From Alphaproteobacteria bacterium (GTDB taxonomy: Bacteria; Pseudomonadota; Alphaproteobacteria; CALKHQ01), in NCBI GenBank assembly GCA_965227515.1, contig CBDDFZ010000001.1, positions 3,232,001 through 3,296,000 of the forward strand: a DNA stretch of 64,000 nucleotides. The letters are read 5' to 3'. The notes beneath the pieces are model-generated. The model did no database searches. It saw only the letters and a program-made list of their open reading frames with translations, and was not told the DNA's origin. This document shows positions 1,077 to 5,700 of this stretch, in pieces; the stretch's first letter is position 1, and each line of letters opens with the position of its first letter. Both the position numbers and the translations under genes were made by a program.

Positions 1077-1646
1077 ATGCGCCGCCTGATCGTCGGCATC
1101 ACAGGCGCGTCCTGCGCCATCTACGGCATCCGCGCGCTGCAGGTTCTGCAGACCGTGGACGATGTTGAGACCCACCTTGTGCTCTCGCCCTCGGCCCTGC
1201 GCACCATTGTCGACGAAACCGACGTGCCTGCGGCTGATGTCCGCGACATGGCCGACGTGGTGCACGACTACCGCGACATCGGCGCCGGGCCGGCCAGCGG
1301 ATCGTTCCTTGCCCACGGCATGCTGGTCGCCCCCTGCTCCATCAAGACGCTGAGCGGCATCGCCAATTCCTACGACGACAATCTGATCGTGCGCGCCGCC
1401 GACGTGTGCCTGAAGGAACAGCGCCGCCTGGTCCTGATGTTGCGGGAGACCCCGCTGCATGCCGGCCATCTGGAGTTGATGCTGCGCGCGGCGCGCATCG
1501 GTGCGGTCATCGCGCCGCCGATGCCGGCGTTCTACCCCCGGCCGCAGACGCTGGACGACCTGATCGACCACGCGGTCGGTCGCGCGTTGGACCTGTTCGA
1601 CATCGATGCAGGTGTGGTGAAGCGCTGGAAGGACAGCGCGGGATAG
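1077..1646 (+). CDS. ubiX: Flavin prenyltransferase UbiX/Pad1
   Basis: RRLIVGITGAS, ASGSF, MLVAPCSIKTLSGIA, RAADVCLKEQRRLVLMLRETPLH, PPMPAFY. Start placed at ATG 1077. Confidence 0.93.
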   Translation: MRRLIVGITGASCAIYGIRALQVLQTVDDVETHLVLSPSALRTIVDETDVPAADVRDMADVVHDYRDIGAGPASGSFLAHGMLVAPCSIKTLSGIANSYDDNLIVRAADVCLKEQRRLVLMLRETPLHAGHLELMLRAARIGAVIAPPMPAFYPRPQTLDDLIDHAVGRALDLFDIDAGVVKRWKDSAG

Positions 1647-1772
1647 CTCGGCGACTGCGTAGATGGGCTAACGGCCCTTGTTTGGTGGCGTGCATGAGTG
1701 GTCGTCCCTCAAGATGTCGGTGTCATACACGGAGTCGGGTTTGCCGCTCCAAGACATCGAGGAGAGACGACC

Positions 1773-2816
1773 ATGAACTACTATGCCGGGATTGACGTTT
1801 CTTTGGAATGGTCATCGGTGTGCGTTGTTGACGGCGCGGGCGGGATTGTCTGCGAGGCTCGTATTGCGAGCACGCCGGCGGGTTTGTTGTTGTGGTTTGG
1901 GTCTTTGGGGATTTCGGTTGAGCGGATTGGTCTTGAGGCGGGGCCGTTGTCGCAATGGCTTGTGCGGGGATGTAGCGAGGGCGGTCTTTCGGTTGAGTTG
2001 CTGGAGACGCGTCATGTTGCGCGAGCGCTTTCGACGATGCCGGTGAAGTCGGACCGCTCGGACGCACGCGGGATTGCTCAGCTGATGCGTGTGGGCTGGT
2101 TTCGGCCGGTTCACTGCAAGTCTTTGGCGGCCCAGGAGATGCGGGCCCTTTTGAAGGGTCGCGACCAGCTCCGCGCGAAGCTGCACGATCTTGAGATGCA
2201 CCTTCGTGGTCAGCTGCGGAACTTCGGGCTGAAGGTAGGGCACACCACCAGGCGCAGCTTTTCGACACGTATTTCGGAGCTTGTGGCGGGGCATCCGGTA
2301 CTGGAGGCGGTGGCGGGGGCGCTGCTGTCGGCACGCGATGGCCTGTTGCTATCGTTCACGGCGCTGGACCGGCAGGTCCGGGCGGCGGCGCAGGCCGACG
2401 ATCGCGCTCGCCTGCTGATGACGGTGCCGGGCGTGGGGAGCATTGTCGGACTGACCTACTTGTCGGGAGTGGACGACCCCGGGCGGTTTGCCTCGTCGCG
2501 CCTGGTGGGTGCGCACTTCGGCCTGACGCCGACCAAGCGCCAGTCGGGCGAGAGCGAGGTGATGGGGCGGATATCGAAGGTAGGGGACGCCGATGTGCGC
2601 TCGGCCCTCTATGAGGCGGCACACGTGGTTCTGACCCGGCCGATCGAGGGCGGCTGGCTGAAGAGCTGGGCGATGAAGCTGGCCAGGCGTGCGGGCATGA
2701 GGAAGGCGAAGGTCGCGCTGGCGCGCCGGCTCGCCGTGATCATGCACCGGATGTGGGTTGACGGCACACCGTTCAACCATGCCGGACCGGTGCGCCCGGC
2801 GATGGCGACAGCATGA
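1773..2816 (+). CDS. IS110-family DEDD transposase/recombinase
   Basis: YAGIDVS, IGLEAG, KSDRSDA (DEDD RuvC-like), TVPGVG, GLTP..RQSG (catalytic Ser), ISKVGD..RSALYEAA, KAKVALARRLAVIMHRMW. RBS gagga before ATG 1773. Confidence 0.96.
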   Translation: MNYYAGIDVSLEWSSVCVVDGAGGIVCEARIASTPAGLLLWFGSLGISVERIGLEAGPLSQWLVRGCSEGGLSVELLETRHVARALSTMPVKSDRSDARGIAQLMRVGWFRPVHCKSLAAQEMRALLKGRDQLRAKLHDLEMHLRGQLRNFGLKVGHTTRRSFSTRISELVAGHPVLEAVAGALLSARDGLLLSFTALDRQVRAAAQADDRARLLMTVPGVGSIVGLTYLSGVDDPGRFASSRLVGAHFGLTPTKRQSGESEVMGRISKVGDADVRSALYEAAHVVLTRPIEGGWLKSWAMKLARRAGMRKAKVALARRLAVIMHRMWVDGTPFNHAGPVRPAMATA

Positions 2817-3080
2817 TGGCCGCGGCATAAGGAGAACCGACACACGAGCTTCGACGGGCACCGACACCGGCCCGTCGAGCGCCGTCCCGCGCCGGGACGA
2901 TGGATCAGGTCAGGCCGCCATCCGGGATGTCGCCTCGCATGAGAGCACGCTTCCGTAGATTGGACCGACCGATCCTCGCATATCCATCTTGGCGGCGGCC
3001 CTGCGCCGACCCCGTACAGAAGCATGACCCAGGCGCCGGGACGACGAAAAAGGGATTGACCAACAATGGCCCGTTACAGA
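2817..3080 (+). ncRNA. Putative IS110 bridge/seek RNA region (3' non-coding end)
   Basis: Contains cgtag (2954, left target), ccatct (2984, rc of AGatgg), tacagaag (3015, element right end) and acccaggc (3027, rc of right target), with GC-rich hairpins between them. Boundaries are inferred. Confidence 0.6.
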
Positions 3081-3134
3081 AGCCTGGGTGAAGCGCAGCG
3101 AAACCCGGGTTCCACTTCGTTCCACCCAGGCTAC
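3081..3134. repeat. GTAG-type REP hairpin (interrupted IS target)
   Basis: Removing the IS restores GTAGCCTGGGTGAAGCG...TTCCACCCAGGCTAC, an inverted repeat beginning with GTAG and ending with CTAC. Confidence 0.8.
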
Positions 3135-3252
3135 GAGCCTGAGCGAGGCCGCCACCTCCTCACAAAATTACCTTTGTAATTTCGCGAAAGAAAAAAGCTA
3201 TTGTTCCGCGCCATTTTTCGTTAGCCTTGATGCATGGTCATTTCATTCGGCA

Positions 3253-3323
3253 CCAGCCCTCTCCCCCACCCGGCCGCCCAACGACAGTATCCTGCTGGGT
3301 GGCCGGGTGGGGGAGAGGGCTGG
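3253..3323. repeat. Long intergenic palindrome (REP/RPE-like hairpin)
   Basis: ccagccctctcccccacccggccgccca ... tgggtggccgggtgggggagagggctgg: 28-bp arms with 1 mismatch. Confidence 0.75.
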
Positions 3324-3431
3324 CGCAGATTCAGCGCAAGCTGAGCTTGAGCTAGGCACCAATCGTGCCGATGAGGCCGCCGCGACGGGTGCATCCGCCT
3401 GGCGCCGGTGCCGTGAAACGAGGAGATTGTC

Positions 3432-4616
3432 GTGCGTAAGGGATTCCGGGTCATCGACGTAGACAGCCACGTGACGCCGTCGCTTGAGGTGCTGCACAAA
3501 TACGCCAGCCAGGCACTCAAGGACCGCTGGGACGAGTTCAATCCCTATCTGCGCGAGATGAACTCACCCCCGGGCCGCGGCCACCCGACCGGACCCTGGC
3601 ACACCATCAAGGTCAACCCGATCCCCTACAACCGCATTGCCGGCGAGAAGCCCGGCGTGGAGTTCGCCGAAAAGGGCGGCAAGGGCGCCTTGGAATCGCG
3701 GGTCAAGAATATCTCGAAGTACGAGTGTGCCGAGCGCATCCAGCACGACAATCCCGATGGCCGTGTCGCCGACATGGACACCGAGGGCGTGGACGTGAAC
3801 GTGCTGATCCCGGGCACCTGGGCCTCGGCCTCCACCGCACTCGATCCTGGCCTGTCGTCGCTGCTCTACGGCGCCTATCACGACTACATGGCGGATTTCT
3901 GCAGCGGTCACCCCAACCGTCTGCTGGGCCTGTTCCTGGCGCCCGGCAACAACATCGAATGGGCGGTGGAGAACCTAAAGAAGCGCGGCGAGGAAGGCTG
4001 GGTCTCGTGCGTCTGGCCGTGCCTGCCCGAGGGCATGCCGATCGACGACCCGGACCTGGAGCCGTTGTGGGAGGTGATGAACGACCTGCACCTGCCGATC
4101 ATCCACCACTCGTTCTTCTATGAGCCGCCGTACTTCCCGGGGTATCGCGACATCTGGGGCAACGCCGCCATCGCGCGCACCGCCGCCCACCCCTGGGGCG
4201 CGCAGCGCCTGCTCGCCTACGTGATTGCCGGCGGCATCCTGGACCGGCACCCCAACATCAAGGTGGGCTTCGCGGAAACCGGACACGGCTGGCTGCCCTA
4301 CTGGGTGAAGCGTCTCGACAGCCAGGTGACCTATGTCGCCGGCACCGTGCGCCCGCTGAAGTACCTGCCCAGCGAATACGTCAAGATGGGCCGGGTGTTC
4401 TGCTGCATCGAAAGCCACGAGGGCCCGGAGATGACCAAGGCGGTGATCGACGTGCTGGGCGACGGCTGCCTGATGTATGCCTCCGACTTCCCACACCCGG
4501 AGTGCGACTGGCCGCATTCGGTCGACAACGTGATCGCGTGGGAGAACCACCTGGGCAACGAGCCGCTGCGCAAGCTGTTGGGCGCCAACGCCGACAATTA
4601 TCTGCGCGTCGCCTGA
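3432..4616 (+). CDS. Amidohydrolase family (Amidohydro_2) metallohydrolase/decarboxylase
   Basis: VIDVDSHV metal motif, DMDTEGVD, PIIHH, GGILDRHP..KVGFAETG..WLP, MYASDFPH. RBS aggag. Confidence 0.9.
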   Translation: MRKGFRVIDVDSHVTPSLEVLHKYASQALKDRWDEFNPYLREMNSPPGRGHPTGPWHTIKVNPIPYNRIAGEKPGVEFAEKGGKGALESRVKNISKYECAERIQHDNPDGRVADMDTEGVDVNVLIPGTWASASTALDPGLSSLLYGAYHDYMADFCSGHPNRLLGLFLAPGNNIEWAVENLKKRGEEGWVSCVWPCLPEGMPIDDPDLEPLWEVMNDLHLPIIHHSFFYEPPYFPGYRDIWGNAAIARTAAHPWGAQRLLAYVIAGGILDRHPNIKVGFAETGHGWLPYWVKRLDSQVTYVAGTVRPLKYLPSEYVKMGRVFCCIESHEGPEMTKAVIDVLGDGCLMYASDFPHPECDWPHSVDNVIAWENHLGNEPLRKLLGANADNYLRVA

Positions 4617-5524: not shown

Positions 5525-5700
5525 GTCATCCTCGCCCTTGTGGCGAGGATCCATTCATGGCCAGCGCGCGAGCCGCGGGCTCGGCTTGCGGCGCACCGTG
5601 GTGGAGCGCATAGATGTCCTTGCAGGACCGGCAATCACGAACAAGGCCCGCAATCGCGCCCTGCACAGCGATGGGTCCTCGGCACAAGGCCGAGGACGAC
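5525..5700. repeat. Palindromic REP-doublet element, copy 2
   Basis: gtcatcctcgcccttgtggcgaggatccat (5525-5554) pairs with atgggtcctcggcacaaggccgaggacgac (5671-5700). The right arm is nearly identical to 981-1005. Confidence 0.8.

Follow-up and report, generated by a model that had tools for sequence, protein, structure and literature searches.

A predicted two-loop bridge/seek RNA in the right end of an IS1111-type insertion sequence that targets REP-like palindromes

The element, its gene and its insertion sites

The window is a stretch of 64,000 nucleotides from an Alphaproteobacteria bacterium (assembly GCA_965227515.1, contig CBDDFZ010000001.1, positions 3,232,001 to 3,296,000 of the forward strand), and all coordinates given below are those of the window. 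Near its beginning lies an insertion sequence, whose features and immediate target are as follows.

1661..3082, + strand: IS110-family insertion sequence, IS1111-type, 1,422 bp including the AG core at both ends (1661-1662 and 3081-3082)
1773..2816, + strand: transposase/recombinase gene, 347 aa, matching Pfam PF01548 (E 9.5e-13) and PF02371 (E 2.3e-20)
1669..1686, + strand: left arm (18 nt) of the subterminal inverted repeat, with 78% complementarity to 3059-3076
3059..3076, + strand: right arm of the subterminal inverted repeat, pairing with 1669-1686
1699..1773, + strand: 5'-UTR hairpin, arms 1699-1710 and 1762-1773 (12 nt, 92% complementary)
2848..2879, + strand: hairpin just 3' of the stop codon, CUUCGACGGGC...GCCCGUCGAG, read by eye
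3056..3061, + strand: TTGACC, likely -35 box of a circle-junction promoter, proposed from the sequence and the published Pjunc
1656..1660, + strand: left target flank (..tgcgt) of this copy; GT precedes AG in 20/20 genomic copies and CGT in 15/20
3083..3139, + strand: rest of the REP-like target palindrome, right flank CCTGGGTGA..., recurring on both strands in dozens of places

Twenty full-length copies of the element were found in the genome, with 89.8-100% identity, together with one internally deleted copy. All 20 start with AGATGGGCTAACGG and terminate with CAACAA[T/C]GG[C/T]CCGTTACAGAAG, and their flanks differ, so that they represent separate insertions and the bounds of the element can be set at 1661-3082. 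Thirteen copies show an identity of at least 99%, indicating that the element was recently active. Among the genomic copies the non-coding end is better conserved than the gene.

The transposase matched the NCBIfam model NF033542, 'IS110 family RNA-guided transposase', with 237.4 bits for a cut-off of 140. An alignment of seven proteins (that of the window and those of six relatives, 41-65% identity) shows no variation at D8, E55, D94, D97 and S258; by analogy with D11/E60/D102/D105/S241 reported for IS621 (PMC11208158), these are the predicted catalytic residues. The protein would therefore associate an N-terminal DEDD (RuvC-like) domain with a C-terminal Tnp domain carrying the catalytic serine, the organization of the IS110 family. 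The non-coding ends are of unequal length, with 112 nt on the left and 266 nt on the right. The relatives described below likewise have a subterminal inverted repeat, the arms of which form a perfect 10-bp pair (GTAACGGGCC / GGCCCGTTAC). Since a subterminal inverted repeat and a short left and a long right non-coding end are described as hallmarks of the IS1111 group (PMC11208160, PMC11187229), the element was assigned to this group.

The 3' arm of the 5'-UTR hairpin covers the ribosome-binding site and adjoins the start codon, and the relatives are organized alike (GGTCGTCCCTC ... GAGGGACGACCATG). A hairpin also occurs in relatives at the place following the stop codon, with a different stem sequence (TTTCGGGCGGG...CCTTCCCGAA). 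As to the TTGACC motif, nearly all relatives have a conserved TTGAC equally distant from their right end. A junction promoter, Pjunc, has been published for IS1111/IS110 elements (PMC12288879; PMC11187229); by analogy, such a promoter would arise in the excised circle from TTGACC and, after a spacer of 17 nt, GAAG joined to the AT with which the left end starts.

The target of the 20 copies reads nGT-AG-CCYGGRTG(R)AGCG, which corresponds to the left edge of a REP-like palindrome recurring throughout the genome. The genome also contains 114 uninterrupted nGTAGCCYGGRTG sites, each with a single AG. Because these empty sites hold one AG only, the core is AG and the target is not duplicated. Insertion is thus site-specific and free of target duplication, with a core dinucleotide common to the ends and the target, as in the IS110 family.

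Guide segments of the predicted RNA

Relatives of the element were collected with a protein-pattern scan, which yielded 29 loci from genomes and 80 from metagenomes, with protein identities of 43-69%. The 3' end of the element in the window can be aligned well with theirs. A covariance model built from 41 relatives was searched in 100 sources (loci L120-L129 being left out) and returned 90 matches, all of them downstream of the gene and on the transposase strand. The putative guide-RNA region consequently occupies, in this family of elements, the long right end, as described for the IS1111 group. Both anchor columns are spanned by 84 of the 90 matches. The right end, identified as a second copy of the 7-mer of the left donor guide (LDG) at least 45 nt downstream, was located in 76 of those, and 69 elements were non-redundant by guide and flank. 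For the left end, fuzzy matching with the left-end consensus was used and placed it in 58 non-redundant elements. Elements truncated by a contig end were dropped. A one-piece regular expression for all guides parsed only 7 elements and was replaced by the covariance-model alignment.

According to the rules published for IS621 (PMC11208160), the left target guide (LTG) is identical to the top strand of the left target with the core, and the LDG to the right end with the core; the other two, the right target guide (RTG) and the right donor guide (RDG), are reverse complements, of the core plus the right target and of the core plus the left end, respectively. With these rules, the original prediction had read four guides and a hairpin between 2941 and 3040: cgtag as LTG (2954-2958), ccatct as RDG (2984-2989), a GC hairpin (2991-3011), tacagaag as LDG (3015-3022) and acccaggc as RTG (3027-3034). 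All five segments are present at these positions, as verified on the sequence and by a pairing check, and the four labels are internally consistent by the IS621 rules. Comparison with the relatives yielded the following set of guides.

2918..2926, + strand: RTG, CCATCCGGG, directly after the conserved anchor CAGRCCG (2911-2917)
2954..2958, + strand: LTG, cgt plus core AG, equal to the left flank plus core (gcgt-AG)
2984..2990, + strand: RDG, CCAUCUU, complementary to A-AG-ATGG of the circle junction (7-nt match)
3015..3022, + strand: LDG, UACAGAAG; tacagaag is the right end plus core, and the identical 8-mer lies at 3075-3082

The claim that an IS110-family element carries target and donor guides in its 3' non-coding end was thus upheld, with three of the four guides first proposed and the hairpin correctly identified. 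These three guides and the hairpin occupy homologous, conserved positions in 84-90 related elements. The fourth guide is found elsewhere, 15 nt upstream of the interval that had been read.

The RTG was identified by comparing, in the 69 non-redundant elements, the 14 nt following the anchor with the core and right flank of the same element and scoring the longest exact complement. The mean was 7.22 nt and the median 8 nt, with at least 6 nt in 49/69, at least 7 nt in 46/69 and at least 8 nt in 40/69 elements (p=5e-34). Control pairs, in which elements and flanks were mismatched, gave a mean of 3.33 and a median of 3, and only 2.6% of them reached 6 nt. Position by position, guide positions 2-9 and flank positions 8-1 formed an antidiagonal of 59-78% complementarity within the clade of the window. 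Guides and flanks of very different sequence correspond to each other in the relatives, such as CATGCGGG with CCCGCATG, AATCCGCC with GGCGGATT, CATGTCCG with CGGACATG, CAAACCTTCT with AGAAGGTTTG and TTGCCCACC with GGTGGGCAA. In the genome under study, the right flank found most often is CCCGGATGG, of which CCATCCGGG is the exact reverse complement. Against this assignment, the strict complement between RTG and flank is shorter than 6 nt in 20/69 relatives, and in L023, L054, L069 and L087 the RTG and the flank disagree, which mobilisation in trans, decay of the copies or an incorrectly placed end could explain. The copy in the window itself has a strict Watson-Crick score of 3 only, because its flank, CCTGGGTG, needs two wobbles, with which 8 pairs are formed.

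The LTG lies in a fixed frame, CACGC-N4-7-AGAUUGG. It is followed by a conserved AU (2959-2960), identical to the first two bases of the left end, and AGAU is invariant in the alignment of the relatives. The run of identity between the LTG and the left flank of the same element, counted leftwards from the core, had a mean of 2.84 and a median of 3 and reached at least 3 nt in 34/58 elements (p=1e-35); mismatched pairs had a mean of 0.50, and 4.4% of them reached 3. The suspicion, voiced when cgtag was first noticed, that it might be a chance match can therefore be lifted, although this guide is very short, with 2-4 nt in addition to the core. Genomic copies match it at GT in 20/20, at CGT in 15/20 and at CCGT in 4/20 cases, and the 5/20 copies that match at GT only speak against it.

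Both donor guides had been correctly recognized. The ccatct segment is the reverse complement of AGatgg, and the match extends by one nucleotide to CCATCTT (2984-2990). In relatives, the RDG ACCCCATC equals the left end ACCCCATC exactly in 16/58 elements, and most of the others are 1-2 positions off. A possible pairing of the RDG with GAUGG (2899-2903) was also noticed; L039, which has a different left end, carries no compensating change there. The 7-mer of the LDG follows the right-end type by lineage, with ACAGAAG, AGAGAAG, AGCGAAG, ACCGAAG and ACGGAAG as variants. Since this 7-mer served to locate the right end, the agreement is not an independent statistic and none is claimed. As a side observation, the base that follows the core after the LDG is C in 64/69 and A in 5/69 relatives, and 4 of the 5 elements with A have A as the first base of the flank, which represents few events.

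Variation was then sought in all four guides among the 20 genomic copies. Only one guide position, G2924A in the RTG, and two positions of the hairpin between RDG and LDG were found to vary; LTG, RDG and LDG are invariant and hence provide no test within the genome. G2924A turns CCATCCGGG into CCATCCAGG and is carried by 7 older copies, with 89.8-97.6% identity. Position 2924 faces flank position 3, at which all 7 copies with A2924 have a T (CCT sites, of which 6 are CCTGGGTG and 1 is CCTGGATG). In contrast, copies with G2924 have T at this position in 2/13 and C in 11/13 cases (Fisher p=0.00046). The exact complement of the G2924 guide, CCCGGATG, is the site of 9/13 of these copies, for a background of 27/134 among occupied and empty sites (binomial p=1.8e-4). 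When rG.dT and rU.dG wobbles are allowed, each guide class can pair with every site occupied. G2924A may thus have split the copies into two target classes, which would amount to a natural retargeting inside one and the same cell line, and wobbles may let one guide cover a degenerate REP family.

Helices of the predicted RNA and the strand downstream of the left donor guide

Three helices, P1, P2 and P4, were predicted by RNAalifold from the 41 relatives; a fourth one, P3, was read by eye.

2889..2896, + strand: P1 5' strand, long-range closing helix, GCGCCGGG
3028..3036, + strand: P1 3' strand, CCC-A-GGCGC, overlapping the segment 3027-3034 formerly read as right target guide
2902..2914, + strand: P2 5' strand, basal stem of the target-binding arm; 7 pairs, 5 of them changed on both sides, 95.8% of cells paired
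2965..2975, + strand: P2 3' strand, from RNAalifold and covariation
2929..2948, + strand: P3, inner hairpin of the target-binding loop, G2929-C2948 ... C2936-G2941, loop GCAU, by eye
2994..3011, + strand: P4, GC hairpin between RDG and LDG, 2994-2999/3005-3011; 5 pairs, 4 of them changed on both sides, 98% of cells paired

Over the 17 pairs tested in the 41 relatives, 96.3% of the cells were paired and 14/17 pairs had changes on both sides. None of 500 shuffles reached the observed covariation score, and sliding the partners by 1-3 columns left only 29-50% of the cells paired. In P1, all five pairs tested (2889-2893 with 3032-3036) change on both sides, in 4-13 sequences per pair, with 95.1% of the cells paired, and the GGG/CCC extension of the helix, read from the sequence, is invariant. 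The two strands change together from GCGCC/GGCGC in the window to UCGCC/GGCGA in the commonest clade, CUCGC/GUGAG in another one and UCACCU/AGGUGA in L034, and the targets of these elements are unrelated. The register of P2 in the window was re-read by hand as GGAUC/GAUCC, GGUC/GACC and GG/CC. P3 is also present in minimum free energy (MFE) folds, and its positional counterpart in relatives is GUGG...CCAC, of variable length. The GC hairpin proposed earlier at 2991-3011 stands, with compensatory changes added to it, and its stem is now placed at 2994-2999/3005-3011.

Folding of single sequences was no better than that of shuffles (z = +0.68, -1.58 and -0.80), and the MFE structure pairs guide regions with each other. 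Single-sequence folds were therefore not used as evidence, and the structure rests on the relatives. A search of 1500-3500 against Rfam, with E values up to 1, gave no match within 2817-3082; the region's only hits, on the palindrome at 3244-3331, came from microRNA and snoRNA (Pab91) models and stayed below threshold.

Taken as a whole, the guides and helices make it very probable that the 3' end encodes an ordinary two-loop bridge/seek RNA of the IS1111 type, with a predicted length of about 148 nt (2889-3036) and on the transposase strand. As far as the sequences tell, its elements are ordered, from 5' to 3', P1(5') - P2(5') - RTG - P3 - LTG - P2(3') - RDG - P4 - LDG - P1(3'). In this predicted structure P1 closes the RNA, and P2 carries the target-binding internal loop with the RTG on its 5' side, P3 in the middle and the LTG on its 3' side. 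RDG and LDG flank P4 in a multiloop between P2 and P1, a location of the donor-binding nucleotides that is one of the features of seekRNAs. The other one is also found, namely an RTG, complementary to the top strand, placed 5' of an LTG, complementary to the bottom strand, both of which track their flanks in the relatives. The succession RTG-hairpin-LTG then RDG-hairpin-LDG makes two tandem units, target then donor, with the guide complementary to the top strand coming first in each. Transcription and processing of the RNA and its binding by the transposase are inferred from the homologues; among the sequencing runs searched, three contain the stretch, and none of these is on record as RNA. 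By analogy with the published IS621 and IS1111 work, from which pairing to DNA and circle formation are taken, RDG and LDG would pair with the circle junction ...TACAGA-AG-ATGG..., the DEDD/Ser recombinase would exchange strands at the AG core, and the element would insert without duplicating its target.

The P1 3' strand deserves particular attention, as acccaggc (3027-3034) is the reverse complement of gcctgggt (3082-3089) and had been taken for the RTG. Since P1 is formed by GCGCCGGG and CCC-A-GGCGC, 3027-3034 belongs to the 3' strand of the closing helix. Its relation to the target was assessed in the 69 non-redundant elements with the 18 nt that follow the LDG. These gave a mean of 3.61 and a median of 3 for the own target, with at least 6 nt in 4/69 elements (p=0.21), for a mean of 3.46, a median of 3 and 2.6% reaching 6 nt in mismatched control pairs; the window was the sole case of at least 7 nt among the 69. 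No antidiagonal appeared for this site in the position-by-position table. The check proposed with the original prediction, covariation of guides with target sites across homologues, is therefore passed by 2918-2926 and failed by 3027-3034.

The same region contains an invariant local hairpin, GUCCC...GGGAC (2885-2898), which overlaps the P1 5' strand, so that the two are mutually exclusive; the loop of this hairpin and GGG are what pairs with 3028-3036 in P1. In L033, a change that breaks the top pair of the hairpin is compensated in P1 and not in the hairpin. This single case makes a switch between the hairpin and P1 possible. One may imagine an RNA alternating between an open and a P1-locked state, in which the freed ACCCAGGC could touch CCTGGGT-type sites, in addition to the natural retargeting by G2924A; we consider this combined scheme rather unlikely. 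If true, the switch could follow transposase binding or processing from the 3' end of the mRNA.

A related proposal is that in this lineage ACCCAGGC, which owes its existence to the extra A3031, has another role besides forming P1, either as an additional guide for the CCTGGGT form of the REP sequence or by pairing with read-through RNA from the right flank, in which case copies integrated at such sites would misfold. It would account for the exact fit of ACCCAGGC to CCTGGGT sites, at which the RTG needs one or two wobbles, and for the presence of 6/7 older copies at such sites. However, the older copies carry an RTG variant, CAUCCAGG, that accounts for their sites with a single wobble, and a strand engaged in a conserved helix is unavailable for other pairing. 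The match is at a chance level of 15%, and the relatives give no support. This dual use of the strand is thus very improbable.

The two-loop RNA described above also has to be weighed against the nested arrangement initially put forward, in which LTG (2954-2958), RDG (2984-2989), LDG (3015-3022) and RTG (3027-3034) follow each other with the donor guides inside the target guides, as an alternative, new architecture. The exact 8-nt complementarity of 3027-3034 to the right flank of this copy is real, it extends to 13 nt at 85%, and acccaggc fits 8/20 genomic copies, those at GCCTGGGT sites. Yet 296 of 2,000 shuffles of the non-coding region (15%) also gave an exact match of at least 8 nt to one or the other strand of the 25-nt target, so that this match is not significant by itself. 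The other 12/20 copies, including 11/13 of the youngest, lie at sites mismatching acccaggc, which is a second failure of the covariation check, and L034 has the same ACCCAGG with an unrelated target, CAGACGTC. Combined with the compensatory changes in 5/5 tested pairs of P1, the lack of target relation in the 69 relatives and the strongly covarying guide at 2918-2926, these observations make the nested order extremely unlikely: the true RTG is 5' of the LTG, which gives two tandem units, and the apparent nesting resulted from one strand of a structural helix being taken for a target guide.

Finally, the idea that the protein alone picks the target and that the matches are relics of end duplication or chance events in G+C-rich DNA, to which the near copy of the right end CCCGTTACAGAAG in the LDG region CCCGUACAGAAG and the unremarkable thermodynamic folds would lend themselves, is hardly conceivable in view of the covariation of guides and flanks across many different targets, the compensatory base-pair changes, the higher conservation of the non-coding end than of the gene among genomic copies and the experimental proof reported for homologous IS1111 elements (PMC11187229).

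Significance and comparison with known systems

The RNA predicted here is not a new architecture of programmable recombinase. What the locus offers is a cleanly bounded element of the IS1111 type, with four guides, helices and a target mapped by about 70 relatives that read many targets, together with a single guide mutation accompanying a shift of site choice within one genome. The G2924A example is a test case for the tolerance to mismatches and wobbles of IS1111-type guides, which are less studied than those of IS621. The locus also calls for caution when guides are read by eye in DNA rich in G+C and REP sequences; here, a segment matching the target exactly over 8 nt proved to be one strand of a structural helix.

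The closest likeness is to the IS1111 elements ISEc11, ISPa11, ISKpn4 and ISPst6 (Siddiquee et al. 2024, PMC11187229), which are described as coding for a DEDD transposase of about 340 aa and as having subterminal inverted repeats and a long non-coding region after the gene. In the seekRNAs reported for this group, encoded in the right end, the segment complementary to the top strand precedes, on the 5' side, its bottom-strand counterpart, which is the reverse of the order in IS110-type RNAs (PMC11187229). Short forms of 70-100 nt and long forms of 145-170 nt are given in the same account, and these two ranges accommodate the 74 nt of the target arm (2902-2975) and the 148 nt of the complete predicted RNA (2889-3036). 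IS1111 relatives of the ISEc11 kind are also reported to be naturally retargeted by guide changes (PMC11187229), as appears to be the case here. The likeness to these four elements is one of description: their sequences and targets differ from those of the present element, which has a REP-like palindrome as target and an RNA that is predicted.

IS621, of the IS110 group (Durrant et al. 2024, PMC11208160; Hiraizumi et al. 2024, PMC11208158), is described with four guides as well, one for each strand of target and donor, which extend up to a shared core dinucleotide, with a REP-type target, insertion without duplication and a target unit followed by a donor unit. Several differences separate the two systems. 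The IS621 RNA is encoded in the left end, upstream of the gene, whereas that of the present element would come from the right end, downstream of it; the guide for the bottom strand comes first in the IS621 loops, and the guide for the top strand here. The donor loop of IS621 is a simple internal loop, while the donor guides lie here in a multiloop closed by P1. Lastly, IS621 has an LTG of 8-9 nt and a CT core, in contrast to the 2-4 nt in addition to the core, and the AG core, of the present element.

ISPpu9 and ISPpu10 of Pseudomonas putida (PMC12288879) are IS110-family elements that share with the present one an insertion in REP sequences, recombination at an invariant AG and the formation of circles. 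They are presented in that work as IS110-group elements, with an RNA upstream of the gene and without subterminal inverted repeats, and as having the Asr9/Ssr9 small RNAs; these small RNAs were not seen in the present element.

Donor nucleotides located in a multiloop have been described for many IS1111 orthologues (Durrant et al., PMC11208160), and the IS1111 structures drawn in Extended Data Fig. 10c of Durrant et al. and in Fig. 3 and Supplementary Figs 6-7 of Siddiquee et al. may already show the same layout. Both the strand order of the guides and the multiloop donor site are thus already published for IS1111, to which the present element adds an IS1111-type example that targets REP sequences.

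Copies of the element in the genome

The copies of the IS1111-type element carried by this genome belong to two coexisting sub-lineages, which split at window position 2924, within the right-target guide. The G2924 sub-lineage comprises 13 copies of 99.0-100% identity and the A2924 sub-lineage 7 copies of 89.8-97.6% identity, and the variants of the REP target, the REP-like palindrome in which insertion occurs, differ between the two. An internally deleted copy was also noticed at G000:C1:998355-999181 (source genome coordinates), which retains element positions 1-711 and 1301-1422 and has lost most of the 3' half of the gene together with part of the guide RNA region.

Local structures and the donor guide

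Two local structures were recorded within the element:

2885-2898: invariant local hairpin, GUCCC-loop-GGGAC
1699-1710 with 1762-1773: 12-bp stem that covers the ribosome-binding site and adjoins the transposase start codon

P1, the covarying long-range closing helix of the predicted guide RNA, takes its 5' strand from the loop and the GGG of the first hairpin. Since the hairpin and P1 are mutually exclusive, they may represent a conformational switch. The stem over the ribosome-binding site (1699-1773), an arrangement common to relatives, probably blocks the translation of read-through transcripts.

The left donor guide region CCCGUACAGAAG (3011-3022) corresponds to the right end of the element, CCCGTTACAGAAG (3070-3082), less one T. 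This likeness in sequence hints at an origin by duplication in either direction, the guide being born from the end or the end from the guide.

Surroundings of the insertion

The insertion falls between a gene at 1044-1646, a putative UbiX-type flavin prenyltransferase by the look of its translation, and a gene at 3432-4616 whose translation, judged in the same way, resembles an amidohydrolase. Two other repeat families lie nearby:

3247-3331: near-perfect palindrome of 85 nt, second repeat family
861-895 and 981-1013: short palindrome of GGGCCCTCGGCACAAGGCCGAGGGC type, third repeat family, present here as an inverted pair

BLAST against the genome returned 328 matches for the former, with up to 99% identity, and 155 for the latter, a further copy of which was seen near 5640-5680. 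Rfam matches of the 85-nt palindrome to microRNA and snoRNA (Pab91) models were below threshold and spurious.

Comparison with related elements

In the related element at locus L021, about 1 kb (L021:2750-3833) separates the guide RNA from the right end. This segment, bordered by inverted repeats (CCTGATTACGC...GCGTAATCAGG) and by what looks like a duplication of AAGGGAT, is probably another insertion sequence nested within the element. The right flank past the true end still agrees with the guide of this related element. At locus L058, the right end of the related element is duplicated in tandem (~1350-1420), GCCCGTGACAGAAG occurring twice.
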